Of a stretch of DNA of 64,000 bases, positions 5,681-37,945 are shown in pieces; positions within the stretch are counted from its first letter, which is position 1, and every line of letters begins with the position of its first letter. The DNA is from Bacteroidales bacterium (GTDB taxonomy: Bacteria; Bacteroidota; Bacteroidia; Bacteroidales; UBA10428): the NCBI GenBank assembly GCA_016935615.1, contig JAFGQO010000052.1:30175-94174 (forward strand), read 5' to 3'. The notes beneath the pieces are model-generated. The model was given only the letters and a program-made list of their open reading frames with translations. It did not search any database and was not told the DNA's origin. A program made the translations under genes and the position numbers.

Positions 5681-5978
5681 ATTTTTTAACCGATCTTGTT
5701 ATGATTTGTCAAATCCGCCAAACTGTTCAGATGATTTTACCTTGCATGCAACAAAAATACAGGTATATTTTTAATAAATAGCCTTGTTTTAATTAATACA
5801 CATTATTGTCACTACCCTACATATTAATAGGGGTATTGTATATATTTATTATATTTTTTGATGTATACCCTTATTTTTTTGATAGTTATTAACATAATAA
5901 TACATTTTTTTGTTTTTTCTTAATATATTTGCCATTAGAAAAGAAAGCGTTCAATCATTAACTTTTAATAGCTATAAT

Positions 5979-6989: not shown

Positions 6990-7008
6990 TCAGAAATTCT
7001 CTGAGAAC

Positions 7009-7254
7009 AAAAAAGAGGTTGTCTAAAAAGTAAATGTAACTATATAAAGAATAAATTTTTACTTTGTGTAACTTCTTGTCTGCTCTGTGAATCTCTGTGT
7101 AACAGTAATTTAAGTTATACAACAGTGCCTCTGCAGAGTAGCTTCAGCGCTCGCGGAAAGTTGCGTAAACCTGCCTGCCAGCCACAGGCTGGTAAACCGG
7201 CCAGGCAGGGAAGACACAAAGCCGCACAAAGACTCTTTGGACAACCTCTTTTTT
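7009..7254. repeat. MITE-like / terminator-embedded element between the two convergent glutamine synthetase genes
   Basis: A perfect 15-nt inverted repeat, AAAAAAGAGGTTGTC (7009-7023) / GACAACCTCTTTTTT (7240-7254), brackets 216 nt. The interior holds CACAGAG/CACAAAG repeats and a GC-rich hairpin block (about 7121-7215). Confidence 0.5.
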
Positions 7255-9443
7255 CATCTGCTGAAAAGCAATTCGCGATATTTTGGTAGAGGCCAGATCT
7301 CATTATCCACAATCTGCTCAAGTTTATCAATATGATAACGAATATCCTCTATAAAAGGAAGGACCGTTAAAGAATACTGATTTGCCTTTTCTCTGGCATT
7401 GATGATAACATTTGCATTTTTTCGTGCTTCAGTCATTTCATTCACCTTAGCTTTGATTGTTGAGATATGTTCAGAAATTGTTAACACCAATTCTTTTCTG
7501 GCAACTGATAAATTCTGAAATTCACTTTGGCCGAATGTTTCTTTTAATCCTTTTATATTATTCATCAATTGAGTCTGGTAATCAATTGCAATCGGAATAA
7601 TCTGGCTTAAAGCAATATCTCCGATCACCCTTGATTCTATCTGAATTTTCTTGGTGAAATTGTCATACCGCACATCGGTTCGCCCCTCAAGTTCCTTCTC
7701 ATTCATGACTTTTTGTGATTTGAACAACCGTTTTGATTTTGTTGAGAGATACGCATCAAGCGATTCAATGACACTGGTAACATTAGTAAGTCCCCTCTTC
7801 GCCGCTTCTTTTTGCCATTCTTCACTATAGCTGTTCCCCTCAAAACGCACATTTTTCGATTCAATGATGTATTTTCTTATTACCTGAAATATTGCCTCAT
7901 CTTTTTTAACTCCTTTATTTATCAATTCATCTATGTCCTTTTTGAACTGAACCAGTTGGTGGGCAACGGCAGTGTTTAACACAGTCATGGGGGCAGCGCA
8001 ATTCACTGAAGCACCAACAGCTCTGAATTCAAAACGGTTGCCTGTGAACGCAAATGGAGAAGTACGATTTCTGTCGGTATTATCAAGTAATATTTCAGGG
8101 ATTTTACCAACGTCTAATTTTAGTTCTGTCTTTTCATCCGGGGTCATTTTTTTAGTTGTAACCCTAACTTCCAATTCATCGAGCATACCGGATATTTTAT
8201 TGCCAACAAACACAGACATGATCATGGGCGGAGCCTCATTTCCTCCCAATCTTAATGCATTTCCTGCTGACACAATACTGGCCCTTAACAAATCCTGATG
8301 AGTATATACTGCTTTTAAGGTGCAAACCAAAAAACTTAAGAATTGCATGTTTGTTTTTGGTTTTTTCCCGGGTGATAAAAGATTCACTCCGGTATTGGTC
8401 ATCAGCGACCAGTTGTTATGTTTTCCTGACCCATTAATTCCTTTGTAAGGCTTTTCATGAAACAACACAATAAAATGATGACGCCTGGCTATTCTTTTCA
8501 TAATATCCATCAGCAGAATATTATGATCAACCGCCAGATTGCATTCTTCAAATACCGGAGCTGCCTCGTATTGATTAGGTGCAACCTCATTGTGTCTGGT
8601 TCGCAAAGGTATTCCAAGCTTATAGGCTTCAATCTCAAATTCTTTCATAAACCCGCTTACACGCTCAGGAATGGATGAAAAATAATGATCATCAAGTTGT
8701 TGATCTTTTTCTGAAGCATGACCCACCAATGTACGATCAGTCATTACAAGATCAGGCCTGGCAAAATATAGTGCCTCATCGACAAGGAAATATTCCTGTT
8801 CAACTCCGAGTGTCGCATAGACTTTTGTAACATTTTTATCAAAATATTCACAAACATCTACAGAGGCTTTATCAATGACAGCCAGTGCCTTTAATAAAGG
8901 GGTTTTATGGTCAAGAGCTTCACCCGTATAGGATACAAATACCGTGGGTATACTTAATGTATTTGCAACAATATATGCCGGAGAGGAAGGATCCCATGCC
9001 GTATAGCCTCTTGCTTCAAAAGTATTACGAATACCACCGCTCGGGAAACTGCTTGCATCCGGTTCCTGTTGTGCCAGATGCTGTCCTGAAAATTTTTCAA
9101 CGACTCCGCCAAATTCCGTATATTCTATAAATGCATCATGTTTCTCAGCCGTGCCATCAGTGAGCGGATGAAACCAGTGAGAAAAATGGGTTGCCCCCAT
9201 TTCAAGCGCCCATGATTTCATGCCGCTGGCAACCTTATCAGCAAGTTTTCTGTCAATTGTATGTCCCTTTTCAATACACTCTGCCACCCCTTCATATGCT
9301 TCCTGTGATAAGTACCGTTGCATTTTAACCTTATCAAAAACATGTATTCCGAAATAATCGGATGTCTTCTTTGACGGAGCCTCTATATAGACCGGTTTTC
9401 TGCTATTTGCATTATGAACTGCCTGAAATCTGATAATAGCCAT
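7254..9443 (-). CDS. glnN: Glutamine synthetase type III (GSIII)
   Basis: 729 aa, the length and N-terminus (FGIHVFDKVKMQRYLS...) typical of Bacteroides-type GSIII. GS catalytic-region motifs are present (EVAPNQYE, NGSGKHNNWS). Confidence 0.85.
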   Translation of the reverse strand: MAIIRFQAVHNANSRKPVYIEAPSKKTSDYFGIHVFDKVKMQRYLSQEAYEGVAECIEKGHTIDRKLADKVASGMKSWALEMGATHFSHWFHPLTDGTAEKHDAFIEYTEFGGVVEKFSGQHLAQQEPDASSFPSGGIRNTFEARGYTAWDPSSPAYIVANTLSIPTVFVSYTGEALDHKTPLLKALAVIDKASVDVCEYFDKNVTKVYATLGVEQEYFLVDEALYFARPDLVMTDRTLVGHASEKDQQLDDHYFSSIPERVSGFMKEFEIEAYKLGIPLRTRHNEVAPNQYEAAPVFEECNLAVDHNILLMDIMKRIARRHHFIVLFHEKPYKGINGSGKHNNWSLMTNTGVNLLSPGKKPKTNMQFLSFLVCTLKAVYTHQDLLRASIVSAGNALRLGGNEAPPMIMSVFVGNKISGMLDELEVRVTTKKMTPDEKTELKLDVGKIPEILLDNTDRNRTSPFAFTGNRFEFRAVGASVNCAAPMTVLNTAVAHQLVQFKKDIDELINKGVKKDEAIFQVIRKYIIESKNVRFEGNSYSEEWQKEAAKRGLTNVTSVIESLDAYLSTKSKRLFKSQKVMNEKELEGRTDVRYDNFTKKIQIESRVIGDIALSQIIPIAIDYQTQLMNNIKGLKETFGQSEFQNLSVARKELVLTISEHISTIKAKVNEMTEARKNANVIINAREKANQYSLTVLPFIEDIRYHIDKLEQIVDNEIWPLPKYRELLFSR

Positions 9444-23154: not shown

Positions 23155-26100
23155 TTATCGGATAACAATTCCCTTCGTAATCATGATCTTTTCTGCGAAA
23201 ATCCTGATGAAGTATACTCCCGGAGATAAAACCGAAACATTCAGTTTCAGATCCTCATTCCCCGGATCTGCATAATGCTGTTCTGATATCAGCACATTCC
23301 CCAGCCTGTCAATTACCTCAATCGATAACTTTTTGTCATTCATTCCTGCCAATTGTATATGAAGAATATCAACTCCCGGATTTGGATAGATCTCTATCGA
23401 CCTGTTCATCATAGAATAAGGAATGGCATTTACATGAGTCACACTTACAGTAACAGTATCAGAGTTTTCGCATGAATTGCTATCCGTTACCATAAGCCAA
23501 TACGTATGATCGCCCACTCCTGCAACACTTCCGGAAACTTCGATACAGGACCCGTCAGAACCGGTACTCCACAAATACGAATAAGATTCATTATCCAATA
23601 GGGAAAGTACAACACTCCCCTGATCAGTTATGGTTGTATCGCTACCAAGATCGACCTCAGGCAATGAATATATGAATAGGCTGACCGGCATACAATCCCC
23701 TTCACACTCTTCAAGTGATTGGGTTACATAATAGGTATACGTTCCGGGTTCTGTTTGGGTAGCAGGAAATATGTTTCCCGAGTATATACAATTTGTAAGT
23801 GCTGTATCTGAATACCAATGGATATTTTCTCCCAGAGCAAACATATCCGGTGTTTCTTCTCCAAAGCAGACAGCCTGGTTTTCAGCGACCGGCAAATCCG
23901 GCACAGGCTTTATTGTAAGCTGAACTGACCTGTAATTGCTTTCACAACCGTTCACGCTCTGAGAAACATAATAGCTGATAGTTCCCGTATCTGATATTTC
24001 CGGTTGATAGACATTCCCTTCGGTCAATAATACATCATCCTTAATACATCTGACCGACATACTCTCTTTCGTATCAGCACTCATCCTCCGGATTCTGCTT
24101 TCGATAGAATGCAAATTCCTCTTCCAGGCAAATTCCTCCTGTTCAAGTGCAGATGTCCAGAAATAAGCCCATGAACCGATATTGTAGAATTCCTTATCCA
24201 GATAACGCGTTCCCCCGGGCAATGCTGTGAATCCGCTTTCATTTGTTGCCCCGGTATTGGGTTCCTTCCAGTACAGATCCGATTCTTCTTTTAATTTGCC
24301 TCCTTCATTCGTTCCTCTCCATTCTCCGGAAAGTGCTTCTGATACTTCCATTCCAAGGTAATTTTCCATTTGCCTCCATTCCCTGTCGGTCGGTATATGC
24401 CATCCTTCCGGACACAGTCCCCTGTTTACTTCATAGCCGGTATAATCCATAGCCTCATCCCACTGGTATAAACCTCCATAGGTGTCACAGTTCTCTTCGC
24501 TGTTATCATAACAATATTTTTCAGCAACCTCATTATTGGTTTGTTCCGTTGTATGACCGATCATAATACCGTAATTCAGGTTTTCAGCCATCCACCATTG
24601 ATCCCCGATCTTCACGGTCAGATATTCCTGTCCGTCCCTCGCATCCACAAGGGATACGATATCCGGATCGGCATACCATTTCACATTCTCTCCCTCTGCC
24701 TGCAACTGGATCGGATCCAGATTCTCACAAACACTCATGTTTTCCGAAACCGGGGCATCGGGCACAGGATAAATGGTCAGAATGACCGTGTCGGCCGGCG
24801 ATTCAACATCGTTGACGGTTTGGGTGACAAAGTAAACATAAGTGCCGGTATCTGTTAAAATAGGCTTGAGGGTATAACCTGAAGCAATTGGATCAGAAAT
24901 ATTTCTCATACAACGTACGGAATAACCATGACTGATATAAGCATTATCTTTATGTAAATCGGCGTTCCCATTTAATACAAGTCGAACCCATGCAACATTA
25001 CCAGTTTGCAAATCAGATGACCAGAAAACGCCACGATCACCAAGAAACCAAAACGTTTCTGAATCATAACTCTTTCTGCCAGCAGGCAAAGCTGTAAAAC
25101 CACTCTCATTGGTTGCCCCGGTATTTGGAGAATTCCAATGCAAAAAACCTTCCTCTTTCATTTTTCCTCCGGCAATTTCATCTCCTCCAAGATACTTACC
25201 TAAATCTATCCAGTCATTATCAGAAGGCAAACGATATCCATCGGGACAGACATCCATTGCAGTTTCCCAATTGTACAACCGGCCATAAACATCCGAATAC
25301 AAAATACTATCATTGTTGTAATACCAGGATCCGGATAAGGTATAAAAATTCAAATTTTCCTTCATCCAGGTTTGGTCATTGATAGTTACCATATTATAAA
25401 TATGATTGTCACGATAATCATATAAGTAACTGGGATTGGCATACCATTTTATATTTTCTCCCTGTGCAGTTAAAAGAACAGTATGTTGTTCTCCACATAA
25501 ATTAACATCTCCGGCAACAGGAGGCAAAGGTCGAATACTAAGTACTACAGTATCGGGATCGCTTTCGCACCCTGATATGTTTTGAGTAACATAGTAAGTG
25601 TATATACCGATATCAGTATGCCCTGTCGGGAAAGGACTCCCTGAATAAATCAAACCGGATAAATGAGGATCATTATACCACCGGATATTTTCACCCGATG
25701 CTGTTAAATCCGGGACAAATTCTCCTTCACATAGGGTAACATCATCTGCTGCCGGAGGCGGAATAACCGAGAGTATATTACCGTATGCATCCAAAGGTCC
25801 CATACATTCATCAGAATCGTCTCCGTCAGGTTCATCGGGACAATCGGGGCAATGTGCCGGTTTAAGACCCGTTCCCCAGGTATAATACCCGTCATTGTCC
25901 TGATCAATGCATCTGATATCAGAATCATTATAATTAACGGAATGTACCGGCCCATGCAAAGAATATACGTATATGCTACCCACTACATAAACATATCCGT
26001 CATTCCCCCAATAACTTCCCCAGCTATTCTTAAACAACCATGCCGTCTGACCAATTAATATGTCATCTTCAAGTATTGTTATCCAGGAGGTCGATCCGTT

Positions 26101-27357
26101 ATTATTAAGATAAATATGGTCACCTTCCTGCAACACTTTATATCCGACCAAAGTCATAGCATGGTTCCAAAAACCTACAGTTGCAGCAGTTGCCCCTTTA
26201 ATAATTTCCCTCTTTTTTTCATCTTCTGATGAATGTGCGCTTTTTGAATTGATTCTTACTATTTCAGCAGAATTAGTGCATTTATTCTCACATGGCAAGT
26301 CATTGGCAGCATAGGGAAAACAACTTTCATTCACAATTCCCGTATCCATAATATAGGTCAATGCACCATTAGGACTACCACCGGCACAACTACCAGCACC
26401 ACTGCATGATAAAACATCCTGTTCGGAAAGATCAGGATCCAGGTGTTGATTGTAATACAAATTCACCAGTAATTCAGTTGCGCCGGTAACGGCAAAAGCC
26501 CAGCAACTTCCGCACCCCCCCTGGTTTTTAACGGAAGTTACCCAGTTCTGCCCATGCCGGTTGCGCCAGCTGAATTCCTTTACAAAGGAAAATCCTGTTT
26601 TGGCTTGAGTGATGGACTTTATCTTATCCTTATCTGCATTCTCTTCAAGTACACCTGGCAAAACAAATATCCCTCCCCTGTAATATTCAAAACCCTGCAA
26701 ATTGGGTACTTTACCACCGAACATCTTCTTTTTTTCCTGGTATGTCATACATGAAACGGATGTTTCCCCGGCAATCCATTTTAGCCCTTTTCTTTCTATA
26801 TACTGATTTATTTTGTTAATTTTTTCCGATTGCTGTTGTTCTAATTTATTGGTTCTGGTCTTTGCAATAAAGGATTCTTCTCCTCTTGTTTCTATTTCTT
26901 TTAAATGAATGGAGGCATCCACTGTTTCAATAGTGATGCTCATCGGAATAATGTTATCCAATATTGCTGTTTCTTCCCCGGTCTGATCAATTTCAAAAGA
27001 CCCATTTTCTGTCAATAAGGGATATGCTTCATAAATAAGGTATTCATTCAACTTATAATCAATAAGGATCACCCGCACCAGGCTTGAATCGGAATACAAT
27101 TCAACAGAGGCTGAGATTGTCAATCCACTGATTTTTCGCTGATCGGTAAAAGGTCGCAACTGAATGTTTTTATCTGTACGGATATTCAATCCTATCCGTT
27201 GATCGGCCTCTTTCAGCATTTTAAAAGAACTCTTACCGGCCATTTGTGAATGGATCGTTGAAGACAAACAAAGAATACAAAACAGCATTAATATTTTTAG
27301 TAATAGTTTATCAATACTGTTAATCAGGATTTTAAAAGGTTTTGCAACTAACAACAT
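23155..27357 (-). CDS. T9SS-secreted multidomain protein: papain-like C1 cysteine peptidase, four Ig-like modules, two FISUMP (Fibrobacter succinogenes major paralogous) domains and a Por/T9SS C-terminal sorting domain
   Basis: C1 catalytic motifs are QGGCGSCWAF (Cys at about aa 285, nt about 26505), WNHAMTLVGY and NSWGSYWGNDGY. FISUMP signatures are YGRLYNW.....CP.G(Y/W)(R/H).P.D.(D/E)W, NTGATNESGFTALP.G and SVRC(M/I). The C-terminal IEIYPNPGVDILHIQL...GVYFIRI is T9SS-CTD-like. Confidence 0.8.
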   Translation of the reverse strand: MLLVAKPFKILINSIDKLLLKILMLFCILCLSSTIHSQMAGKSSFKMLKEADQRIGLNIRTDKNIQLRPFTDQRKISGLTISASVELYSDSSLVRVILIDYKLNEYLIYEAYPLLTENGSFEIDQTGEETAILDNIIPMSITIETVDASIHLKEIETRGEESFIAKTRTNKLEQQQSEKINKINQYIERKGLKWIAGETSVSCMTYQEKKKMFGGKVPNLQGFEYYRGGIFVLPGVLEENADKDKIKSITQAKTGFSFVKEFSWRNRHGQNWVTSVKNQGGCGSCWAFAVTGATELLVNLYYNQHLDPDLSEQDVLSCSGAGSCAGGSPNGALTYIMDTGIVNESCFPYAANDLPCENKCTNSAEIVRINSKSAHSSEDEKKREIIKGATAATVGFWNHAMTLVGYKVLQEGDHIYLNNNGSTSWITILEDDILIGQTAWLFKNSWGSYWGNDGYVYVVGSIYVYSLHGPVHSVNYNDSDIRCIDQDNDGYYTWGTGLKPAHCPDCPDEPDGDDSDECMGPLDAYGNILSVIPPPAADDVTLCEGEFVPDLTASGENIRWYNDPHLSGLIYSGSPFPTGHTDIGIYTYYVTQNISGCESDPDTVVLSIRPLPPVAGDVNLCGEQHTVLLTAQGENIKWYANPSYLYDYRDNHIYNMVTINDQTWMKENLNFYTLSGSWYYNNDSILYSDVYGRLYNWETAMDVCPDGYRLPSDNDWIDLGKYLGGDEIAGGKMKEEGFLHWNSPNTGATNESGFTALPAGRKSYDSETFWFLGDRGVFWSSDLQTGNVAWVRLVLNGNADLHKDNAYISHGYSVRCMRNISDPIASGYTLKPILTDTGTYVYFVTQTVNDVESPADTVILTIYPVPDAPVSENMSVCENLDPIQLQAEGENVKWYADPDIVSLVDARDGQEYLTVKIGDQWWMAENLNYGIMIGHTTEQTNNEVAEKYCYDNSEENCDTYGGLYQWDEAMDYTGYEVNRGLCPEGWHIPTDREWRQMENYLGMEVSEALSGEWRGTNEGGKLKEESDLYWKEPNTGATNESGFTALPGGTRYLDKEFYNIGSWAYFWTSALEQEEFAWKRNLHSIESRIRRMSADTKESMSVRCIKDDVLLTEGNVYQPEISDTGTISYYVSQSVNGCESNYRSVQLTIKPVPDLPVAENQAVCFGEETPDMFALGENIHWYSDTALTNCIYSGNIFPATQTEPGTYTYYVTQSLEECEGDCMPVSLFIYSLPEVDLGSDTTITDQGSVVLSLLDNESYSYLWSTGSDGSCIEVSGSVAGVGDHTYWLMVTDSNSCENSDTVTVSVTHVNAIPYSMMNRSIEIYPNPGVDILHIQLAGMNDKKLSIEVIDRLGNVLISEQHYADPGNEDLKLNVSVLSPGVYFIRIFAEKIMITKGIVIR

Positions 27358-27580
27358 GACTGTTCAGATTAGGGTAATGAAAACTATGGAAAAGCTGATC
27401 TTGATTCAATTTACAACTTTAAAAAAGTGAAGTCGAGCACTTGTTGATGAATTGTATGCATACGATTGATCAATGGTCTGGATTTTAAGCTGAAAAAATA
27501 AGATGCAAAAAACGAATTTAGATTACAATAAAAAAAAGTCAATCCAATTAATATTCATTGCTTTAAATATTACATAAATT

Positions 27581-29767
27581 GATCTGTTTTATTCAATTTT
27601 TCAATCAACCGAAGACGCCAGGTGGCGGCTGAGCTCGTGAGCGACAGCGAACAAACCACTCAAAAGAATGAAGTTTATATTGAGCCGGGAAAATCCCGAT
27701 ATATCTTATTCAATTTTTCAATCAAACCACAACTATCCTTAATCTGCTCTGCTATTCTTTTTAGATATATCTTATTCAATTTTTCAATCAAACCACAACA
27801 CACGGGAGGGGATGATGGGATAGGTTCTTGATATATCTTATTCAATTTTTCAATCAAACCACAACAAAGCTGCAACAGGAGTAACAGATACAGAAGATAT
27901 ATCTTATTCAATTTTTCAATCAAACCACAACCAACTTTCGGAGATAGTACAACGGCTGGGGATATATCTTATTCAATTTTTCAATCAAACCACAACCGCA
28001 TCAAGCTTGGTTTCAATCCTCGTTAGATATATCTTATTCAATTTTTCAATCAAACCACAACAGTAATTGAACCACTCCATGCAGAGATGCTGATATATCT
28101 TATTCAATTTTTCAATCAAACCACAACATGGTTATTAAAGAACTACGCTAAAGAGGGGATATATCTTATTCAATTTTTCAATCAAACCACAACATAGTAC
28201 ACGAAGGAATTTTTTTATTATTGATATATCTTATTCAATTTTTCAATCAAACCACAACCTCCAAAGCTGCTTTATCCTGCGGATCAGGATATATCTTATT
28301 CAATTTTTCAATCAAACCACAACTTGTCTATTATTATTGTTGTTTGCTGCTCGGATATATCTTATTCAATTTTTCAATCAAACCACAACAGAGTCTAGCT
28401 GTGCTATTGTTAATGTTTGGATATATCTTATTCAATTTTTCAATCAAACCACAACTGCTTCCATTCTGGTAAAAATCATAATCTGATATATCTTATTCAA
28501 TTTTTCAATCAAACCACAACGCTTTTAACAATAGAGGATCTGCGGGAAATGATATATCTTATTCAATTTTTCAATCAAACCACAACAAGAAAAAGGTCAA
28601 GGAAGAAAGATAACAGATATATCTTATTCAATTTTTCAATCAAACCACAACATAGTTAAATATCTGCTTTCCTGTGGTTATGATATATCTTATTCAATTT
28701 TTCAATCAAACCACAACGATCCTGTTATTGACCTCGTTTTTGAACCAGATATATCTTATTCAATTTTTCAATCAAACCACAACACAACTGTAACAGCTGC
28801 CTCTTCTTCTTAAGATATATCTTATTCAATTTTTCAATCAAACCACAACTGTTTCATGCGGTTTGTTTTAATATGTCTTGATATATCTTATTCAATTTTT
28901 CAATCAAACCACAACTAGATCTTGTCTATCCGTTAGGGAAAGGCAGATATATCTTATTCAATTTTTCAATCAAACCACAACTGGCTCTGGAACACGGATG
29001 CGACAGCATAGATATATCTTATTCAATTTTTCAATCAAACCACAACTCTCTAATCTGGATTCAGATTTAGTAGGCAGATATATCTTATTCAATTTTTCAA
29101 TCAAACCACAACTACAATACCGAAAATGATTACGGAATGGTAGATATATCTTATTCAATTTTTCAATCAAACCACAACCACCGGGCAGTACAGGATATCC
29201 AGTTTGAGATATATCTTATTCAATTTTTCAATCAAACCACAACCGTTTTAATACAGACAATTATGAGTTACTGATATATCTTATTCAATTTTTCAATCAA
29301 ACCACAACCATTTGCCAACGCTCATTTTATAACCATAAGATATATCTTATTCAATTTTTCAATCAAACCACAACGGACGTAGTCCGGATACTTTAAAAGT
29401 TAAAGATATATCTTATTCAATTTTTCAATCAAACCACAACACATCTCCATGAGTATATATTTGAGAATAGATATATCTTATTCAATTTTTCAATCAAACC
29501 ACAACATGCTTACTCTTTTTGAAACGATACTAATTGATATATCTTATTCAATTTTTCAATCAAACCACAACTCTTTCTTTCAGCATATTAACCCTCAACA
29601 GATATATCTTATTCAATTTTTCAATCAAACCACAACAACAAAAGGAATTAATTGAATTAGGCAAAGGATATATCTTATTCAATTTTTCAATCAAACCACA
29701 ACTGTTTTGATATCAATAATGTATAAACGTTGATATATCTTATTCAATTTTTCAATCAAACCACAAC
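27581..29767 (-). CRISPR. CRISPR array: 32 identical 36-nt repeats plus one degenerate terminal repeat, 29-30-nt spacers
   Basis: The plus-strand repeat is GATATATCTTATTCAATTTTTCAATCAAACCACAAC. In crRNA sense (minus strand) it reads GTTGTGGTTTGATTGAAAAATTGAATAAGATATATC. Full repeats run from 27698-27733 to 29732-29767, with 31 unique 29-30-nt spacers counted by hand. A degenerate repeat (29/36 identities) lies at 27581-27616, at the end distal to cas2. Confidence 0.97.
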
Positions 29768-30271: not shown

Positions 30272-30300
30272 CTCTGTCAGGGTTCAAAACCCTGAAAGAG
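30272..30300. repeat. REP-like palindrome copy a (cas1/cas2 junction)
   Basis: CTCTGTCAGGGTT-CAA-AACCCTGAAAGAG forms a 13-bp stem with one mismatch. It sits in the 58-nt gap between the cas1 stop (30304) and the cas2 ATG (30245). Confidence 0.75.
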
Positions 30301-30303
30301 TTT

Positions 30304-31239
30304 TTACTTCAAAACCGGATAATCTATCTTCTTCTGGCTACCTGAAAAGCACCGGGCAAGTGAAGCAGTTGTTTGCGAAAGACCCACCATTAACGGGCGG
30401 GTGGTCTTACCGAAATGCACATCGCGTACCAGCACATTGAGCAGTTCGGCCTTAATTTCTTTTTCCAGGTCTTCCAGTCCCGGATAACTTCCGGCAAGCT
30501 GAAAAACCTGTTCGTCCACAAAAGGACGGTAGGGCTCCATAATGTCGTCGGCCAGGCAATACGCATTATAGCGGTTATGATGATGTATGCCGAACGTGGG
30601 CATTAATCCGCTGCCCGTAAGTGCCCTTGCCACGGCAGCGCGTAGCACAATATACCCGTAATTCAGAAAATTGTTTGGAAACGGACCATAGCGCTCTCGT
30701 GTAAACCCTTCACCAAAAAGCCTTGTCCAGTACAATCGTGCAGCCACACCTTCCCGGCCGGTCGAATCGTCGCTTTTCACATCTTTTGCCAGGGTCTGGA
30801 TATCATTCCATTCTTTTCCCAACTTATCCAGTAACCGTGCCTGGTTGGTTATTTTGGCCTCAACTGTTTGCTTCCATAACCCTTTTTTCAGAGGTTCACT
30901 GATCGACACCTGCTGCCGGAATAACTCTCCCTGCAAATGATTTCCCTCCAGCGGAAAAAGCATGGAATGCGGCATGTGGCTGCTGTTACAAAAAATAACA
31001 GCCACGTTATTAGCTGCTAATTCATCAAGTAATGGCATGCTTATAATGATTTGCTTATGTTCCAGTACTACAAAACCCAGGTCTTCAACCGGAATTGTTG
31101 TTTTATCACCACTTTGCGGATCACTCACCCCTGACAGGGTTTGAAACCCTGTCAGGGGTTCAATCCTGTTTACTATAAGCTGTTTGTTTTTAACTGACAA
31201 ATAGCAGGGGGTTGAAAAATAAACTGTTCTTTTGAGCAT
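30304..31239 (-). CDS. cas1: CRISPR-associated endonuclease Cas1 (type II)
   Basis: ATG at 31239 (MLKRTVYFSTPCYLSVKNKQLIV, a typical type II Cas1 N-terminus). The 25-codon upstream extension in the track ORF is read through a palindrome and is rejected. Conserved Cas1 C-terminal core motifs are GIHH.NRYN.Y.LADD.MEP.RP.VD. Confidence 0.9.
   Translation of the reverse strand: MLKRTVYFSTPCYLSVKNKQLIVNRIEPLTGFQTLSGVSDPQSGDKTTIPVEDLGFVVLEHKQIIISMPLLDELAANNVAVIFCNSSHMPHSMLFPLEGNHLQGELFRQQVSISEPLKKGLWKQTVEAKITNQARLLDKLGKEWNDIQTLAKDVKSDDSTGREGVAARLYWTRLFGEGFTRERYGPFPNNFLNYGYIVLRAAVARALTGSGLMPTFGIHHHNRYNAYCLADDIMEPYRPFVDEQVFQLAGSYPGLEDLEKEIKAELLNVLVRDVHFGKTTRPLMVGLSQTTASLARCFSGSQKKIDYPVLK
31128..31158. 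repeat. REP-like palindrome copy b (in-frame inside cas1)
   Basis: CCCCTGACAGGGTTT-G-AAACCCTGTCAGGGG is translated on the minus strand as EPLTGFQTLSGV. Confidence 0.85.
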
Positions 31240-31261
31240 GGTTATATGTTTTTCTCTTGCG

Positions 31262-31292
31262 CCCCTGTCAGGGTTCGGAACCCTGACAGAGG
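31262..31292. repeat. REP-like palindrome copy c (23 nt upstream of the cas1 ATG)
   Basis: CCCCTGTCAGGGTT-CGG-AACCCTGACAGAGG. This is the stem variant with the T:A pair flipped relative to copies b, d, e and f. Confidence 0.8.
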
Positions 31293-31316
31293 TCAGATAG
31301 TTGTCTGCAAACACTC

Positions 31317-31349
31317 AACGCTGACAGGGTTCTAAACCCTGTCAGCGTT
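31317..31349. repeat. REP-like palindrome copy d (flanks the 3' end of the RAYT gene)
   Basis: AACGCTGACAGGGTT-CTA-AACCCTGTCAGCGTT forms a perfect 15-bp stem. It is identical to copy f except for one loop base. Confidence 0.9.
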
Positions 31350-31360
31350 ACAAATAACAT

Positions 31361-32014
31361 TTAAAAGATCTTTTCTATTCCGGTTAATTCCGGAGGGTAT
31401 TTATGACAGTAAATAGAGTTCTCTTTATCATCGAACCATTCAATAATATCATTTTTCCTGATTATACCTGGTTTATCAGAAACGATTGCATTATATGATG
31501 AATATTCCCAATCCCGGGGATCAGCACAAAAACTGGCTTCCACAGGATTAAAATGAATGCAATGAACCAACTTGTAAAGGTAATTCTCATCGTCTATTGC
31601 CCTGCGCTTAAAAGGTCTGTTAAACAAACTTCCAATACGGCTTTGCTGCTTATTAAAAGCCTGGGTGTAAGCATTGAATAAATTTGAAAACTGTTTGCTA
31701 AAGAAGTTGGAGATGAGTTGTTGCTTTCTCAACCCTGACAGGGTTTCGAACCCTGTCAGGGTTTGGCTATGATTGACTTTTTCTTTCAGATACCTGACAA
31801 CCTCCCGTTTGTTTCTGATTTTAATCAGTAAATGAAAATGATTAAGAAGAAGACAATAACAAAAAGTATGGGCGACAGGATAGATAAAATCCTGATAACG
31901 TTTCATAAAATACCGGTAATTATCATCTGAGGTGTAAAGCTTCTCGTTACCAACAGCCCGGTTGTAAATATAGTAAGTCTTTTCCGGTTCCAGTATGTCT
32001 GTATATTTGTTCAT
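31361..32014 (-). CDS. REP-associated tyrosine transposase (RAYT) / IS200-like Y1 HUH transposase
   Basis: 217 aa. The HUH motif lies in LLLNHFHLLIK. The C-terminal GSLFNRPFKRR...YLYKLVHCIHFNPV carries the catalytic-Tyr helix pattern of COG1943-type proteins. The gene is flanked by palindromes. Confidence 0.8.
   Translation of the reverse strand: MNKYTDILEPEKTYYIYNRAVGNEKLYTSDDNYRYFMKRYQDFIYPVAHTFCYCLLLNHFHLLIKIRNKREVVRYLKEKVNHSQTLTGFETLSGLRKQQLISNFFSKQFSNLFNAYTQAFNKQQSRIGSLFNRPFKRRAIDDENYLYKLVHCIHFNPVEASFCADPRDWEYSSYNAIVSDKPGIIRKNDIIEWFDDKENSIYCHKYPPELTGIEKIF
31731..31763. repeat. REP-like palindrome copy e (in-frame inside the RAYT ORF)
   Basis: AACCCTGACAGGGTT-TCG-AACCCTGTCAGGGTT is translated on the minus strand as QTLTGFETLSGL, between the HUH and Tyr motifs. 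Confidence 0.85.
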
Positions 32015-32042
32015 GGTTATCCTTGAACTTTTAATTTAACCA

Positions 32043-32075
32043 AACGCTGACAGGGTTCGAAACCCTGTCAGCGTT
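32043..32075. repeat. REP-like palindrome copy f (between the cas9 stop and the RAYT ATG)
   Basis: AACGCTGACAGGGTT-CGA-AACCCTGTCAGCGTT forms a perfect 15-bp stem. Confidence 0.9.
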
Positions 32076-32146
32076 AAATTGTCTTTTGCATCTTTTATCC
32101 CAATAAATAGCAGAGTATCGAAAATACATAGCTCGTTTAATCATGG

Positions 32147-35100
32147 TTATATCTTTATTATTTCCCCTAATGCTGTTATTTTAAAATCTACACCCTCTAT
32201 AACAGCATTAAAATTTGTATGTATAAATTTTCTATATAAAACAATTGGCTCATTTAGTTCAAATTTTCCATCTTTTACTTTAAGATCACTCTGAGAAATT
32301 GCACATTGATGAAACAAACAAAAAATTACAGCATATTTACCACTTTCTCCAAAACTCTTTATTTCGTATAACCGTTTTTGCAATTCAGAATAATCTTTCC
32401 AATTAATATCATCAATATTTTCATTTTTTTGTAATAAAAGAATAAATAAATCTTGTTTGAGCATTTGCTTTAGTTCCAAATAACATTTTTTACTTCTATG
32501 CTCAAAATAATCATTGATGGGAAGAGTTACATCATTTTCATGGGAATTTAATAGACGACCAACATCTAAATTATTTAAAAAACGATATTTAACAATTTTA
32601 TCATCTGAATATATCCCTAACAAATAATTCCCATCATTATCCACATATGTTTTTTCTTTGTAATCTTTCCCAAATTTTTCAATTCTTTTTTTGTGTTTTT
32701 TTGATTTGTGTGAATTTTCTTTAAGAGGAATTGCAGTTAAATAACCTTTAGCTTTTATCTGGCGGCATCTAATGGTTTTAATTATCATTTCTTTTTTTCC
32801 ATCCTCTACTGGCAACACTATTTGTCCTTTGCTTTTTACGTTTTTTAATCCATATTTTAATATTCTGTCTTGAATCCCTTTGTCAACAATATTTTTAATT
32901 CCTGATTCATTTAAGTTTTCTATGGGCATTCTTTTTACATACCAATCCTCATATACTATATCATCATTTTCGTTCTTTTTAATTTGATTTTTGCTATCTA
33001 GCATTGGACGTTTTATTTTTCCAAAGAAAAAATCTTTATGCAATTTATCCCGAATGCCAGTTGTAATATTATTCGCTTTATCATTATGCCATGTATACCG
33101 CGCTTCTTTCTCAAATACTACTTTACCGTCTTTGTCTTTTACAAACTCATATCCTTTTAAATTAATAGTCCCTTCAGTTTCTCTGTATTCATCAAAACTG
33201 TTTAAAACTTTAATGTTTTGTTTATTATCGACTTTAAAAATATGCAGTATAAAATCAGGGGTCACATCGTTTCGCTTTCCTTTTACGGGAACATTTTTCC
33301 CATTAATATCGGTTTTGTATTTCCACTCAAGTACTTTAATGCTTCCATTAGTGTCTTTTTCAATTTGGTCAGCGCGATGTACAATTTTACCCCGAACACG
33401 TATCTTTTTTTTCGTTTGTTTCTTTAAATTATCCTTGATACGATGAGAAACTAAAATGCTTTCACGTAGATTTTGCATATCAATCAAAAAGTTTTCCCAA
33501 GGTATTAGCTGTTCTCTGGCCTCTACGATCTGTTCCTTTAGTTTTTTAGTCCCCTCGCTTTTTTCTTCTTTATTAAAATGTAAGGCTTTTTTAAGAAGTT
33601 CTTGTAAATAGTAATAGCGCTCTAACTTTTTCAATGTCTCTGGTTTTCTGCGTGCAAAACCAACAAGACAGGCACAATATACAGCGTCAATAGTGTGATG
33701 GACATGGTTGTCACGGCTTTTCTCATATCCTGTAATTTTTCTAAACTCGTCTACAAATAAAGAGCTAATATTGAAAACATTGTTAAAAGCACTTTTAAGA
33801 TATAATAAAGCATATTTGTTTATAATACCTATGTCTGTTAATTGACGATTCTTAAAATCATCAGTTACTTCTGTAAGTTTGAAATTGTTCACTTTCTTTT
33901 GCCAATAGTCAAGATGCATTTTTAAATAGTGACGTTCTTGAATATTGTGGTTTTTAGTGGCTTTATCATGTATGTTTTTTCCTTTACGTTTTAAATCCTC
34001 AATCCTATCTTCCAGTATCTCCACTTTTTTTTCCCAACGTTTTATGAATGTAAGAATTCTATCGTAATCATTACCCAATTCCGATGGGAGTTTATTCCCT
34101 TTTATGCTTCGATTGTAATAACTTTCAGCAATGGTCTTATTTGATAGAGAGTTATCAAATGATTTACTTAAAGGAATAGTATGTTCAATGTCATGTTTAT
34201 TACCATTTATTAAATCGGCCATTCCAATTTGATTCCCGGTATATATACAAATTCCATTCTGCTCCCTCCAAAGACGATACTTTTCGATAGCATAGTCGGG
34301 CAATTTCATCCTTTTTTCTCTTTTTGTAAACTGAGCTGTATGGATTTCCAACTTGTTATAAAATTGTTCTGCTTCGTTTTCGTCTTCCAATTGTTCTACC
34401 CAGAATTTAATTTTGTCTTTTTCATCATTTCCCGGTTGAATATCCAGCTTATTCTCTTTATAGAACTCAACCAATAAATTTTTGTAAAATTCATTCTCTG
34501 TTTCCCTCTCTTTTTGAAAACGTTCAATAGCCTTTCGCATATTATAATCATTCACATCTCTTCCTAATTCAACAACAATCTGAGTTTCATCATCAATAAC
34601 ATTATTGATTAACAATGCATTTATCACTTTCCTTAACTCGCACATAGCACGCATAAACAGGGGATTCTTAATAGAATTTATTAAAGGACTTTTCAGTAAA
34701 CGTACCCCATTTTTGTTAGGTTCTACTTTTGGATAAAATTCAATGGCAGACGGGTGATAAATTTTCTTTGCTTTTTCTTCTTCTATTGCCAATTCATTTA
34801 TTAAATAATCCTGAACTTGTTGCTTTATACTTTTTGTCTTTATAAAAGAACCACCAATATTTCCTGATTGTAATTGTCTCTCAAAATCGGCCTCAACTTC
34901 AGCTATTATTTTATTTCGAATTTCCTGTTCAAAACCATTCCATGTTTTTTCTCCATACTTTTTTAAAAACTGTTTTAACACAATCTCTTTGTCTCTATCA
35001 TCTAAACAATATTTTGTGTGCGCATTTTTTGATTCATTTCTGAAAATAGCAATACAATCATTGACAATATCATTTTTCTTTTTTTCATAGGAGTATTTAT

Positions 35101-36559
35101 CGAAAATACTATTAACATCTTCTAAAATATCATCAGGAATATTTTCTCCTTTTGAAAGTTCTAAAATATCTGGTATTTTGGCCAACAATATTGCTTTGTC
35201 AGGTCGATACCCTTCTATTAGAAATGGCATTATTTTGCCAATTGCTTTAAAACTTAGATTTGCATAACCTTGTTTTATAGGGGCATTAATGAACCTTTCA
35301 GCTTTATCATCACCTAACCCAAACTTATTTTTAGCAATGTCTATTAATGGTCCATCCGCTTTATCCTGAATAAAATGATCAAAAAACATGTGCCAAATAT
35401 CACGGATATCGATATATTTATTTTCTCCCTTTTTATTTTTACCATTATAAAATTTTACGGATTTCCAATCTTCCCCAAACAAATCTTTCAAGTGAGCGCT
35501 TACTGGGCAGCCACTAACCGTTGTTGTATCTTTATAGTTAAATTCATAGATTCCGGTTTTATCAATCATATTATGTATATCTTCAAACTTAAAAGTGCCT
35601 TTGCTTTTTCGATAAAAAAGAGGTAAAATATTTTCTTCAATGCTTATACCAAAATATGTTTGCTCTCTCAATGATTTAAAATTCTTCTTCTCTTCGCCAA
35701 CTTTTTTAATTTTGATATTATTGATAAAAGAATACATCCTGTATTCTTCAAATTCGATAGAACTTAAAGGGCATCGGGATTTACCGGTTTCAAAAACACA
35801 TTTTCCCACATTCCCTTTTTGAGACTTTAAAGGCCGAGCTTCAAAAATTGTCTTTCTAACTTCCTTAATAAATTCTTCCGATAAATTTTGATGTCGACAA
35901 ATTGCGTGAAAATCCAGTTCCAACGTTTTTCGGGAAATTTTATTTTCTTCAGTAGTATTTCGAATTCTTTCTGCCTTTATATGCTTTTGATACAGAATCT
36001 TACTCTTTGGAATATCTCCATATTCTTCTTCGTATTCTTTGTGATACTCAATATCTTTGGGTAAACTTTTTTTGTTTGTACTAACTTCTGTGGCACTTAA
36101 CAGGGATAAAGTATCCTTTTTATTGCTTTTAAATCCTCTTCGTTGTGTTAAGTGATAGAAAATTCGTCCCAATTCTTTTTTTGATAATTTTTCTCCATCG
36201 ACTGCCCTTTTTCTCAATTCATAGGGATTTAATTTAAACCATTCTATAAGTTTCTCTCGAACCGGATAACTTCGTTTTTTATGCCAAGAAGTTAATTCAT
36301 CATCCTCAAAAGGATGGAACTCTTTCCCTAATAATCGTAAAAGTTCAATTTTCCTGCCTTTTCTTCTATAATTTAATTTTCTAGCACCTCTATGAGAGGT
36401 TCTTTCTGCTGCTCTTGATGAATCCTGATATTCATCTCCATAACCTCTTTGAAATATCCTTACACCTTTTTCTTTTAGTTCCAATTTTCCTTCTTTATTT
36501 TCCACCACTGCCCAACCAATGCTGTTGGTCCCTAGGTCAAGTCCTAAAATTTTTGCCAT
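32147..36559 (-). CDS. cas9: CRISPR-associated endonuclease Cas9 (type II-C, 1470 aa)
   Basis: RuvC-I is MAKILGLDLGTNSIGWAVV. The Arg-rich bridge helix is RTSHRGARKLNYRRKGRK. RuvC-II is IVVELGRD. HNH is DIEHTIPLSKSFDNSLSNKT....YNRSIKGNKLP. RuvC-III is NHVHHTIDAV. There is no csn2 or cas4 in the locus. Confidence 0.97.
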   Translation of the reverse strand: MAKILGLDLGTNSIGWAVVENKEGKLELKEKGVRIFQRGYGDEYQDSSRAAERTSHRGARKLNYRRKGRKIELLRLLGKEFHPFEDDELTSWHKKRSYPVREKLIEWFKLNPYELRKRAVDGEKLSKKELGRIFYHLTQRRGFKSNKKDTLSLLSATEVSTNKKSLPKDIEYHKEYEEEYGDIPKSKILYQKHIKAERIRNTTEENKISRKTLELDFHAICRHQNLSEEFIKEVRKTIFEARPLKSQKGNVGKCVFETGKSRCPLSSIEFEEYRMYSFINNIKIKKVGEEKKNFKSLREQTYFGISIEENILPLFYRKSKGTFKFEDIHNMIDKTGIYEFNYKDTTTVSGCPVSAHLKDLFGEDWKSVKFYNGKNKKGENKYIDIRDIWHMFFDHFIQDKADGPLIDIAKNKFGLGDDKAERFINAPIKQGYANLSFKAIGKIMPFLIEGYRPDKAILLAKIPDILELSKGENIPDDILEDVNSIFDKYSYEKKKNDIVNDCIAIFRNESKNAHTKYCLDDRDKEIVLKQFLKKYGEKTWNGFEQEIRNKIIAEVEADFERQLQSGNIGGSFIKTKSIKQQVQDYLINELAIEEEKAKKIYHPSAIEFYPKVEPNKNGVRLLKSPLINSIKNPLFMRAMCELRKVINALLINNVIDDETQIVVELGRDVNDYNMRKAIERFQKERETENEFYKNLLVEFYKENKLDIQPGNDEKDKIKFWVEQLEDENEAEQFYNKLEIHTAQFTKREKRMKLPDYAIEKYRLWREQNGICIYTGNQIGMADLINGNKHDIEHTIPLSKSFDNSLSNKTIAESYYNRSIKGNKLPSELGNDYDRILTFIKRWEKKVEILEDRIEDLKRKGKNIHDKATKNHNIQERHYLKMHLDYWQKKVNNFKLTEVTDDFKNRQLTDIGIINKYALLYLKSAFNNVFNISSLFVDEFRKITGYEKSRDNHVHHTIDAVYCACLVGFARRKPETLKKLERYYYLQELLKKALHFNKEEKSEGTKKLKEQIVEAREQLIPWENFLIDMQNLRESILVSHRIKDNLKKQTKKKIRVRGKIVHRADQIEKDTNGSIKVLEWKYKTDINGKNVPVKGKRNDVTPDFILHIFKVDNKQNIKVLNSFDEYRETEGTINLKGYEFVKDKDGKVVFEKEARYTWHNDKANNITTGIRDKLHKDFFFGKIKRPMLDSKNQIKKNENDDIVYEDWYVKRMPIENLNESGIKNIVDKGIQDRILKYGLKNVKSKGQIVLPVEDGKKEMIIKTIRCRQIKAKGYLTAIPLKENSHKSKKHKKRIEKFGKDYKEKTYVDNDGNYLLGIYSDDKIVKYRFLNNLDVGRLLNSHENDVTLPINDYFEHRSKKCYLELKQMLKQDLFILLLQKNENIDDINWKDYSELQKRLYEIKSFGESGKYAVIFCLFHQCAISQSDLKVKDGKFELNEPIVLYRKFIHTNFNAVIEGVDFKITALGEIIKI

Positions 36560-36602
36560 AACTTTTTGTTTTTAGAGTTTTATATTATAAATTGCTTACT
36601 AG

Positions 36603-36688
36603 AAAAAATCAATTTTTCAATCTTATCACAATAAGGCTATATGCCGAAGGATATTAAATCCTGTAACCCCGCTTCGGTGGGGTTTTTT
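36603..36688 (+). ncRNA. tracrRNA (divergent from cas9); ends are approximate
   Basis: The anti-repeat UCAAUUUUUCAAUCUUAUCACAAU (36609-36632) pairs with crRNA repeat nt 1-24 (GUUGUGGUUUGAUUGAAAAAUUGA). That gives 22 pairs including two G:U, interrupted by a 2-nt U:U internal mismatch. Next come a nexus-like GGC-UAUAU-GCC, the hairpin AGGAU-AUUAA-AUCCU and the terminator CCCCGC-UUCG-GUGGGG plus U6, ending at 36688. Confidence 0.85.
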
Positions 36689-36978
36689 ATGTGACTATAC
36701 AACACTTCCTTGTACTCAGAAAAACAACTTTTATTCAGGAGTTACTTTATAATTGCCTTATTACGTTTCTATTATGATATGCAAAGAATTACAATTATTA
36801 AGTCAAGTTAACAAATTACTTCTTTATTGCCAAAAAGCATCAAGCCTGAAGTCGACTATTTACATGAGCCATTAACGTTTAAGATGAAGATCATTAAAAA
36901 TAGTGAACCAAAGTTTTATAATTAACGTCCATTCCGCATTGGAAAAGGGAATTGTTCTGGAATATGCGATATCTTTGT

Positions 36979-37182: not shown

Positions 37183-37403
37183 TTATTCAAAGAATTTGAT
37201 ATTGTATGCGGCAAAACCACAGATACATTTTAATTAACTGGCAATAAAAACTAAAAAATCTGATACTCGTTATTTCAATTGGTTTAACCTTATATTGAAT
37301 TGATTGTGTGAGTGAAGAGTCCTTCTCCGTTCCGGTAACCCATAACTTCGGTGGATAAAAGAGAAACAGAGTGAGAATGACTCACTCTCACTCTGTTTTT
37401 ATG

Positions 37404-37468
37404 TGGTAGCACCTGGAATCGTCCCGACTGTGTCACCTGACCAGTCGGGACAGGGACACACGGATTTT
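37404..37468 (-). pseudogene. Relic 3' half of tRNA-Phe (positions 35-73) disrupted by a 30-nt palindromic replacement in the T-arm
   Basis: A 41-nt perfect direct repeat of 37850-37890 lies at 37381-37421 (CTCACTCTCACTCTGTTTTTATGTGGTAGCACCTGGAATCG). Homology then resumes (AGGGACACACGGATTTT) and stops inside the anticodon. The original downstream terminator hairpin (CAGAGTGAG/CTCACTCTG, about 37367-37393) is retained. Confidence 0.75.
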
Positions 37469-37755
37469 TACGAATATTTTTCCTCTAGTCGCTTTAAAAA
37501 TTCCGGCTTGTTTTTCAGGTTTTCTATATATTTCCGGCTTTTCATGTTCTTAATATATTTTTCAATCTTGCGTGCCTGAATTCTGTCTCGACAGGAAATC
37601 ATCAAATATAGTTCCCAATCGCTCACTTTTGAGGTATAGGCATTTTTAAAAAATCCGGTATTATGCATTCGTATCCTTTCCTCTAAATTTTCTGTTTCTC
37701 CTATGTAATATTTATCAAGCAACGGACTGTACAGGATGTAACAAGCGTATTTCAT
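37468..37755 (-). CDS. Small GIY-YIG nuclease family protein (URI-domain, COG2827-like), 95 aa
   Basis: The ATG at 37755 gives MKYACYILYSPLLDKYYIGETENLEERIRMHN, with the GIY...YIG motifs. The 49-codon N-terminal extension in the track ORF overlaps the tRNA-Phe gene and is rejected. The TAA stop abuts the relic tRNA half. Confidence 0.8.
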   Translation of the reverse strand: MKYACYILYSPLLDKYYIGETENLEERIRMHNTGFFKNAYTSKVSDWELYLMISCRDRIQARKIEKYIKNMKSRKYIENLKNKPEFLKRLEEKYS

Positions 37756-37872
37756 TTTTATTAAGACCGGTTTAAAATATAACGTCGGCTTCCCACACCA
37801 AAATCCTACAGAGGATAATAAAAAAAGTGAAAGTAACTTGCTCTTGCTCCTCACTCTCACTCTGTTTTTATG

Positions 37873-37945
<73 letters not shown>

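Follow-up and report, generated by a model that had tools for sequence, protein, structure and literature searches.

The closest described relatives of the system presented here are the repetitive extragenic palindromes (REPs) and the REP-associated tyrosine transposases (RAYTs), represented by the TnpAREP "REPtron" of E. coli (4ER8), the REPIN-RAYT systems of Pseudomonas and class 2 of Quentin et al. 2018 (PMC6006769). RAYTs have been called "domesticated transposases" and are without a known host function (PMC5581495, PMC8266576). The present work concerns a RAYT-like gene for a protein of 217 residues, hereafter Y1, and six copies of a palindrome, which lie together within a type II-C CRISPR-cas operon. 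The operon is carried by a 64,000-nt stretch of a Bacteroidales genome, hereafter the window (GCA_016935615.1, contig JAFGQO010000052.1, positions 30,175 to 94,174). The recurrence of gene and hairpin in many Bacteroidota loci suggests a lasting partnership rather than a one-off insertion. On the basis of sequence comparison, the reading favoured here, with moderate confidence, is that Y1 and its own 33-nt hairpin have long resided in the adaptation half of the II-C locus (Y1-cas1-cas2) and are inherited with it, and that the hairpins may act there as recombination breakpoints. The locus variant cas9-Y1-cas1-cas2 with co-varying hairpins is apparently undescribed: no account of a Y1/RAYT gene in cas operons was found in the literature searched, subscription-only journals aside, which included a survey of CRISPR-linked genes (10.1101/270033) and the RAYT papers.

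The likeness to REP/RAYT systems lies in the HUH-Y1 fold, for which 4ER8 is the best match, in a single-copy gene flanked by cognate hairpins, and in the co-evolution of hairpin and enzyme. Unlike in those systems, each hairpin is a perfect palindrome (15-bp stem, 3-nt loop) that lacks both a bulge and the conserved 5' GT[AG]G foot; those of the cas-embedded members are confined to one operon within the DNA flanks sampled, rather than dispersed at high copy genome-wide; and the gene stands beside cas1 within a CRISPR-cas operon and scores below the NCBIfam and Pfam cut-offs. The palindromes that lie in frame within cas1 and Y1, of 33 nt (11 codons) and tolerated in surface loops, recall the Rickettsia palindromic elements and other in-frame REPs (also in PMC6006769), yet the element here is much shorter than the Rickettsia ones and is tied to an adjacent cognate Y1.

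Three further systems bear on the comparison. Elements of the insertion sequence (IS) group IS200/IS605 (TnpA Y1 with IscB/TnpB) likewise encode a hairpin-recognising Y1 HUH enzyme beside the gene of an RNA-guided RuvC/HNH nuclease. Here, however, Y1 is of the RAYT clade and is present once in the window, its palindromes are perfect where the subterminal hairpins of the left and right ends (LE/RE) are imperfect, no LE/RE enclose cas9, and the co-evolving partner is cas1-cas2 and not the nuclease. The fourth adaptation genes of type II (csn2 in II-A, cas4 in II-B) are also co-operonic with cas1-cas2 and also define a locus variant, but Y1 has an unrelated fold, lies upstream of cas1, occurs in ~15% of related loci and is accompanied by cis hairpins. 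Exchange of cas9 has a precedent in the II-C locus of Flavobacterium psychrophilum, in which unrelated cas9 genes were swapped in between the trans-activating CRISPR RNA (tracrRNA) and cas1, within conserved flanks of tracrRNA, cas1, cas2 and array, in a report that involves neither hairpins nor Y1 (PMC10309648). The transposases of that study (PMC10309648) have no relation to Y1, being insertions of IS982 and IS256, whereas in the present locus the right junction consists of a hairpin together with a remnant of the cas1 5' end, and Y1 sits at the junction.

Identity of the enzyme and its place in the operon

The family of the 217-residue protein is a RAYT/TnpAREP-type clade of HUH-Y1 enzymes of Bacteroidota. 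The family call rests on NCBIfam, profile-PDB and fold searches, because Pfam, including PF01797 (Y1_Tnp), gave no match either with or without the 11-residue insert encoded by a hairpin, and phmmer gave none against PDB sequences. The NCBIfam model REP_Tyr_transpos (NF047646) aligns to the open reading frame (ORF) end to end with E=3e-13 and 49.9 bits, below its cut-off of 80 bits, and relatives of the protein score 14-17 bits on PF01797 against a cut-off of 23. The AlphaFold2 (AF2) model, built on an alignment of 62 homologues, has a predicted local distance difference test score (pLDDT) of 90.5, with low values only at residues 81-100, the loop encoded by the hairpin inside the gene (hairpin B). 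Its best Foldseek match in the PDB is 4ER8, E. coli TnpAREP in complex with a REP hairpin (E=3e-7, template modelling (TM) score 0.71 on the target), followed by the TnpA proteins of IS608 and ISDra2 (E ~3e-3). The initial annotation had read the ORF as a Y1/RAYT transposase from its letters, a call that survives through the NCBIfam alignment and the 4ER8 fold, though with a score under the cut-off and with Pfam Y1_Tnp silent.

The HUH motif that had been named, which in RAYTs coordinates the metal ion, is present as N58-H59-F60-H61, and H59 and H61 are invariant in the 62 homologues. In E. coli TnpAREP, H59 and H61 form the HUH motif and Y115 is the catalytic residue (PMC3479197). The profile of alignment A2 matches 4ER8, with the family sequence VHYIHYNPV set against VDY115IYIN119PV, such that Y152-x3-N156 of the family aligns with Y115-x3-N119. 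The Y-motif helix of the initial annotation, helix alpha-D of the RAYTs, is thus real, but the position of the catalytic tyrosine is occupied by Cys152 in the window copy (VHC152IHFNPV; codon TGC, 31559-31561, minus strand). The tyrosine is retained in all 16 other cas-linked copies extracted. Unless the base is a sequencing error, the window copy is probably no longer active, and its arrangement would be frozen.

Searches gave 451 homologues of the protein, which form a continuum of divergent, single-contig proteins; the gene is single-copy, unlike an IS with its identical multicopies. At E<=1e-30 the family resolves into ~204 clusters (50% identity), mostly unannotated or "hypothetical", and this annotation, together with the sub-threshold Pfam Y1_Tnp scores, may explain why neighbourhood surveys missed it. 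A plasmid location was considered and set aside, as the sole plasmid match is a distant, non-cas relative. The motif TLxGFxTLxG, encoded by the internal hairpin, is conserved, so that hairpin B is a feature of the family and not a fresh insertion. An in-frame REP within the gene is already known for RAYT subclass 2.4, in a paper without any mention of CRISPR (PMC6006769).

The type II-C locus is complete in the window, comprising cas9, cas1, cas2, the array and a tracrRNA anti-repeat, without csn2 or cas4 (Table 1). The 907 nt that separate cas9 from cas1, as annotated, hold the Y1 gene and a degenerate 5' fragment of cas1. All six palindromes proved to lie at the positions first assigned to them, within 1.8 kb; with the outer stem they are 33-nt units of a 15-bp stem and a 3-nt loop, and their 25-nt cores occupy 30274-30298, 31131-31155, 31265-31289, 31321-31345, 31735-31759 and 32047-32071. 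Hairpins A and C, which bracket the Y1 ORF, do differ at one loop base, and the REP-RAYT-REP arrangement that had been proposed is borne out, with cognate hairpins on both sides of the ORF inside a II-C operon. The remaining 62 kb of the window contain no further copy in a pattern search allowing 2-3 mismatches, again as annotated, a count that for this organism refers to the 64-kb window rather than to the whole genome; dinucleotide shuffles of the window give an expectation of 0-0.09 copies. Predicted folding energies of the hairpins as RNA range from -19 to -29.5 kcal/mol, with z scores of -4 to -9. None is followed by a T-run on the coding strand, which sets them apart from plain terminators. 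A scan with Rfam gave nothing within the cas locus, only a tRNA. In the three loci that share the in-frame hairpin E, cas1 is under strong purifying selection.

Recurrence beside cas1 and the hairpin partners

The presence of a Y1 gene at the cas9-cas1 junction of related loci, raised as a question by the initial annotation, is seen in two samples. Among family members picked by similarity alone on long contigs (a small sample, n=11, with one further member undecidable), eight belong to type II loci and stand immediately upstream of cas1, namely P0002, P0003, P0006, P0013, P0020 (Belliella kenyensis), P0025 (Salegentibacter sp. HM20), P0047 (Psychroflexus torquis ATCC 700755) and P0119, and three sit away from cas1. 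From the Cas1 side, the window Cas1 retrieved 80 metagenomic II-C loci (48-65% identity), of which 72 are informative and 11 have a Y1 homologue (23-43% identical) adjoining cas1 or cas2. The closest Y1 homologues, 77% and 69% identical, belong to loci L120 and L123, in both of which the gene stands between cas9 and cas1. In L143 of the Cas1-derived set the Y1 gene separates cas1 from cas2, and in L147 it comes behind cas2 in inverted orientation. Y1 and cas1 are 6-190 nt apart and on the same strand in 15 of 17 loci, and of the 17 cas-linked copies 16 retain both the HUH motif and the catalytic Tyr. The one-off selfish insertion that had been offered as the parsimonious reading fails on this recurrence in many diverged loci, while the functional association set beside it stands as a conserved, co-inherited genomic association only. 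Absence of the gene from related cas loci had been named as speaking against a functional link; related loci do carry it.

In several related loci additional genes stand beside or close to the cas9/Y1 junction (L205, 4456-5820; L210, 892-1362 and 6297-6911; L211, 6417-6737). These encode a HIRAN-domain protein, a PRiA4_ORF3 protein, a 266-residue ORF and a 106-residue ORF, the last of which is bracketed by hairpins in P. torquis (L211). In L123 (GCA_964633305.1) a second CRISPR-Cas set (cas6b, cas1, cas2, cas4) comes right after the II-C array, at 5942-9261.

Y1 is a constrained gene under purifying selection. Among the window, L120 and L123, its ratio of nonsynonymous to synonymous divergence (dN/dS) is 0.17-0.25, and that of cas1 is 0.04-0.08. 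The synonymous divergence itself (dS) is 0.43 and 1.08 for Y1 versus 0.53 and 1.24 for cas1, and this equality implies that Y1 has travelled with cas1 since the three loci split. The nearest-neighbour orders of Y1 and Cas1 also agree within two groups, one formed by the window, L120, L123 and L209, the other by L205, L210 and L211. A strict co-phylogeny of the two proteins was rejected, as it holds within clades and fails overall. Taken at the level of sequence, the comparisons indicate an association of Y1 and cas1 that is old and recurrent, and not strictly vertical.

Each Y1 locus possesses a palindrome family of its own, of 15+3+15 nt, for example ACCTTTTCCAAAGTT-CCA-..., AGACCTACGAGGTTT-TCA-... 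and AGCCCTTCAAGGGTT-CAA-.... Over 16 loci, hairpins are found before Y1 in 10, inside the Y1 ORF in 13, between Y1 and cas1 in nine, between cas1 and cas2 in six and after cas2 in eight. For the internal Y1 hairpin, aligned across 12 loci, 97% of cells are paired and 13 of the 15 stem pairs are altered on both sides, although these covariation statistics are inflated by the picking of sites with a hairpin finder. Within each locus the internal and flanking hairpins are nearly identical, which points to homogenisation. Of the 11 loci with Y1, 10 have strong hairpins close to cas1-cas2 (0.77 per kb), as against 14 of 69 loci without it (0.08 per kb), and those of the latter are mostly terminator-like. 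The DNA that flanks six further cas-embedded loci, including L209 and L123 and ~12 kb each in L210, L211 and L214, contains no cognate hairpin. The free, non-cas relatives of Y1 have hairpin copies that are dispersed, kilobases away.

The initial annotation had placed the palindrome as concentrated on the cas operon. This is true within the window, but an identical palindrome occurs in at least 119 stretches of other genomes, from many Bacteroidota and also from Brocadia, Kuenenia and KSB1; the window's own genome is absent among the matches listed. The consensus across genomes reads AAC(C/G)CTGACAGGGTT-YNR-AACCCTGTCAG(G/C)GTT, and in the consensus of 126 copies there is neither a conserved 5' GT[AG]G foot nor any conserved base beyond the 15-bp stem. 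The palindrome CTGACAGGGTT-N3-AACCCTGTCAG is found in identical form in Planctomycetota (Kuenenia, Brocadia) and KSB1, in L044, L043, L045, L050, L068, L017 and L018. In L044 (Candidatus Kuenenia, SOET01000078.1, 2450-3810) it lies between a cas2-like gene and a cas1 whose product is 28% identical to the window Cas1, and in L050 it is part of an ORF, in which it reads LTLTGFETLSGL. In L027 (Bacteroidales Cfx3-06, JACABB010000054.1), a contig that begins inside cas1, a cas1-cas2 pair at 29-862 (52% identical) carries the window-type palindrome at the cas1/cas2 junction and after cas2.

Exchange of cas9 and the weighing of explanations

The three closest loci have a mosaic structure. The cas1 genes of L120 and L123 are 96% and 86% identical to that of the window and the cas2 genes 96% and 84%, whereas cas9 is 27% identical between the window and L120 and gives no significant match between the window and L123. 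In blastn, homology of the window to L120 begins at 32071-32078, that is, at hairpin A, and extends at 87.5% over 2.5 kb through Y1, cas1, cas2, the leader and the array; homology to L123 likewise begins at hairpin A. With L120 it resumes at 36510-36900 (L120 54-438) at 85.8%, a segment that comprises the tracrRNA region and the first 16 cas9 codons (~50 nt). A cas1 5' end, well preserved and terminating at a hairpin, lies behind cas9 in L120 (4578-4690); L123 is without such a remnant. In the window the 36-nt direct repeat D9 is itself a cas1 5' remnant, and target-site duplication was therefore rejected as its source.

The base composition follows the same division. The GC content in the window is 30% in cas9, 36% in Y1, 46% in cas1 and 45% in cas2, with a window mean of 36%, which raised the idea that the window had newly acquired a foreign cas1-cas2. 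This was rejected because L120 and L123 have the same step, the ranges for the three loci being 27-30% in cas9, 34-36% in Y1 and 41-47% in cas1-cas2. The mosaic thus predates their split, and the cas9 gene is what differs. The alignments argue that cas9 is an exchanged cassette on a conserved backbone of tracrRNA, Y1, adaptation genes and array, with its right-hand junction at the hairpin. The combination, in the window and L120, of Cas9 proteins only 27% identical with a tracrRNA region, CRISPR repeat and first 16 cas9 codons ~86% identical means that either both Cas9 proteins use one shared dual-RNA scaffold or one of the loci is mismatched.

A mechanism that would join these observations treats the hairpins as DNA substrates of the Y1 enzyme, which would make them and keep them uniform locally by REP-type copying on single-stranded DNA. 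The hairpins would then offer portable breakpoints for exchanging parts of the locus. By such exchange, unrelated cas9 genes may have come to adjoin the same Y1-cas1-cas2-array block and tracrRNA region, and the cas1 5' fragment that stops at a hairpin would be what remained afterwards.

Several observations weigh against a co-inherited resident whose hairpins serve as breakpoints. The relations of Y1 and Cas1 clash for L133/L143 and L127/L158, the Mantel correlation of the two without the close trio is r 0.08 (p=0.21), and a rough neighbour-joining (NJ) tree intermixes cas-linked and free Y1 members. Such weak deep co-phylogeny implies gains, losses or exchanges, and insertion preference could explain it. 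Y1 is missing from 61 of the 72 sampled II-C loci (~85%) and is thus dispensable for II-C function, an accessory and not a core gene. On its left side cas9 has a breakpoint away from any hairpin, and the cas9 swaps may therefore be products of ordinary homologous recombination. The window's own enzyme is without the catalytic tyrosine, and most contexts come from short metagenome contigs; the smallness of the similarity sample, the inflation of the covariation statistics and the restriction of the hairpin count to 64 kb belong on the same side.

Incongruence for the same pairs of loci and the intermixed tree are also what would be seen if a RAYT/IS200-like element favoured the cas9/cas1 junction or existing hairpins and hitch-hiked on mobile CRISPR loci without effect. 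REPs are known IS targets, and the junction hosts other inserted genes (HIRAN, PRiA4_ORF3, small ORFs). Such a selfish niche preference is nevertheless unlikely, as the gene is single-copy along a continuum of divergence and not present in multiple identical copies, its purifying selection and a dS equal to that of cas1 denote long co-residence, and the breakpoints at hairpins indicate consequences for the locus; with no hairpin spread outside the locus, the selfish pay-off is unclear as well. A recent, single insertion of a REP-RAYT unit into this operon draws on local features only, the intermediate GC of the Y1 region and the palindromes missing from the rest of the window, and it is effectively excluded, since L120 and L123, at dS 0.4-1.2, share the arrangement and carry the hairpins as orthologues, and since it occurs in many more distant loci. 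Nor does Y1 behave as a relic of the IS200/IS605 (TnpA and IscB) ancestor of Cas9, for it is nearest to TnpAREP and not to the TnpA of IS200/IS605, seems by present indications to nest within class-2 TnpAREP with an ancestry in Bacteroidota that is recent, tracks cas1-cas2 rather than cas9, is limited to a subset of Bacteroidota II-C loci, and no LE/RE ends are present around cas9. The adjacency of Y1 to cas9 and the derivation of Cas9 from the IscB of IS200/IS605 (PMC8987985) are in favour of this origin, whose probability is close to nil.

Two further explanations assign a role to the hairpins or the enzyme within the operon. The hairpins may act mainly in the cas9-Y1-cas1-cas2 transcript as punctuation, being intercistronic stem-loops that hold up 3' exonucleases or guide processing. 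The Cas9 to Cas1-Cas2 ratio would be fixed in this way, much as REPs work in E. coli operons, with Y1 only seeding and maintaining the hairpins. In many loci they stand exactly at cistron boundaries, their predicted stems are stable and lack the T-run of a plain terminator, and a role of REPs in mRNA stabilisation is established (PMC3733652, PMC8266576). The copies within the Y1 and cas1 coding sequences are off the boundaries, many Y1 loci have the internal hairpin only (L153, L205, L216), and perfect palindromy with co-variation of the enzyme points to recognition of DNA, all of which makes this explanation doubtful. Alternatively, a II-C variant might have in Y1 a fourth gene for adaptation, the functional counterpart of csn2 or cas4, for instance as a nuclease of single-stranded DNA that makes or trims prespacers or aids integration. 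This is unlikely: a locus-specific hairpin partner is the mark of RAYT-type site recognition rather than of a nuclease for prespacers in general, Y1 is missing from ~85% of related II-C loci, free members of the family live away from cas genes, and the window copy has no Tyr, yet its array still has ~32 repeats. To our knowledge no fourth adaptation gene is known for II-C, which counts for this explanation, as do the tight co-operonic spacing with cas1, the inheritance of Y1 with cas1-cas2 and not with cas9, and the catalytic residues kept in nearly every cas-linked copy.

Beyond long residence in the adaptation half, Y1 and its hairpins could tentatively be regarded as the functional module of a distinct II-C variant. 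The HUH enzyme would then excise, insert or exchange cas cassettes at the hairpins of cistron boundaries, by an integron-like route through single-stranded DNA, and/or would feed single-stranded DNA to Cas1-Cas2 acquisition.

Features of the window and implications

Table 1. Coordinates of the type II-C genes, the Y1 gene and the six hairpins in the window
Feature	Position	Strand	Remarks
cas9, 1470 aa, ~30% GC	32147-36559	minus	TIGR01865, E=1e-102; HNH_4 and RuvC_III domains
Y1/HUH RAYT-like gene, 217 aa	31361-32014	minus	NF047646, 49.9 bits; AF2 model; Foldseek 4ER8
cas1, 311 aa, 46% GC	30304-31239	minus	TIGR03639 cas1_NMENI, E=1e-89
cas2, 112 aa	29907-30245	minus	PF09827 and TIGR01573
CRISPR array, ~32 repeats of 36 nt (GTTGTGGTTTGATTGAAAAATTGAATAAGATATATC)	27698-29767	minus	repeat common to L120 and L123
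Putative tracrRNA	36600-36700	plus, divergent from cas9	anti-repeat ~36609-36640, then GC hairpin and T-run terminator
Degenerate cas1 5' fragment (MIKRAMYFRYSAIY...)	32079-32145	minus	ends at hairpin A; direct repeat D9, 31216-31251 vs 32121-32156
Hairpin A, cas9/Y1 junction (AACGCTGACAGGGTT-CGA-AACCCTGTCAGCGTT)	32043-32075		RNA dG (predicted folding energy) -26.1 kcal/mol, z -7.4
Hairpin B, in frame within Y1 ORF	31731-31763		encodes loop TLTGFETLSGL
Hairpin C, Y1/cas1 intergenic	31317-31349		dG -27 kcal/mol; orthologous copy in L120 and L123
Hairpin D, Y1/cas1 intergenic, "T-flavour" (compensated A:T to T:A stem swap)	31262-31292		T-flavour orthologue at L120 5420-5452
Hairpin E, in frame within cas1 (EPLTGFQTLSGV), variable loop of N-terminal domain	31127-31159		only in window, L120 and L123
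Hairpin F, cas1/cas2 junction, T-flavour, one mismatch	30272-30300		dG -18.8 kcal/mol; orthologues in L120, L123, L209 and L127

The last repeat of the window's CRISPR array, near 27577-27608, is degenerate, and the end of the array is abutted by a gene for a secreted protein of 1400 residues (23155-27357) with Peptidase_C1, Fib_succ_major and Ig_7 domains and a Por_Secre_tail of the type IX secretion system (T9SS). A secreted protein of T9SS type supports the Bacteroidota origin of the window. On the other side of the locus, the segment 37381-37945 contains a tRNA-Phe (37872-37945, minus strand), then an ORF for a 95-residue GIY-YIG nuclease (~37468-37755; PF01541, E=1e-11). The 3' half of the tRNA-Phe is duplicated there, 37381-37421 being equal to 37850-37890 and 37451-37468 to 37894-37911, and the duplicate is broken by a 30-nt hairpin insert. 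From its sequence, the GIY-YIG ORF with the tRNA repeat looks like a small element inserted at the tRNA 3' end.

For the biology of CRISPR systems, the loci document the exchange of unrelated cas9 genes on a constant backbone of tracrRNA, adaptation genes and array, with hairpins indicated as the junctions. For the RAYTs, a clade with a fixed gene partner (cas1-cas2) and operon-restricted hairpins provides a concrete and testable context for function, and cultured carriers of the variant include Psychroflexus torquis ATCC 700755, Belliella kenyensis and Salegentibacter sp. HM20. Should Y1 and its hairpins indeed form a functional module of the II-C locus, this would be the first defined biological role for RAYTs.

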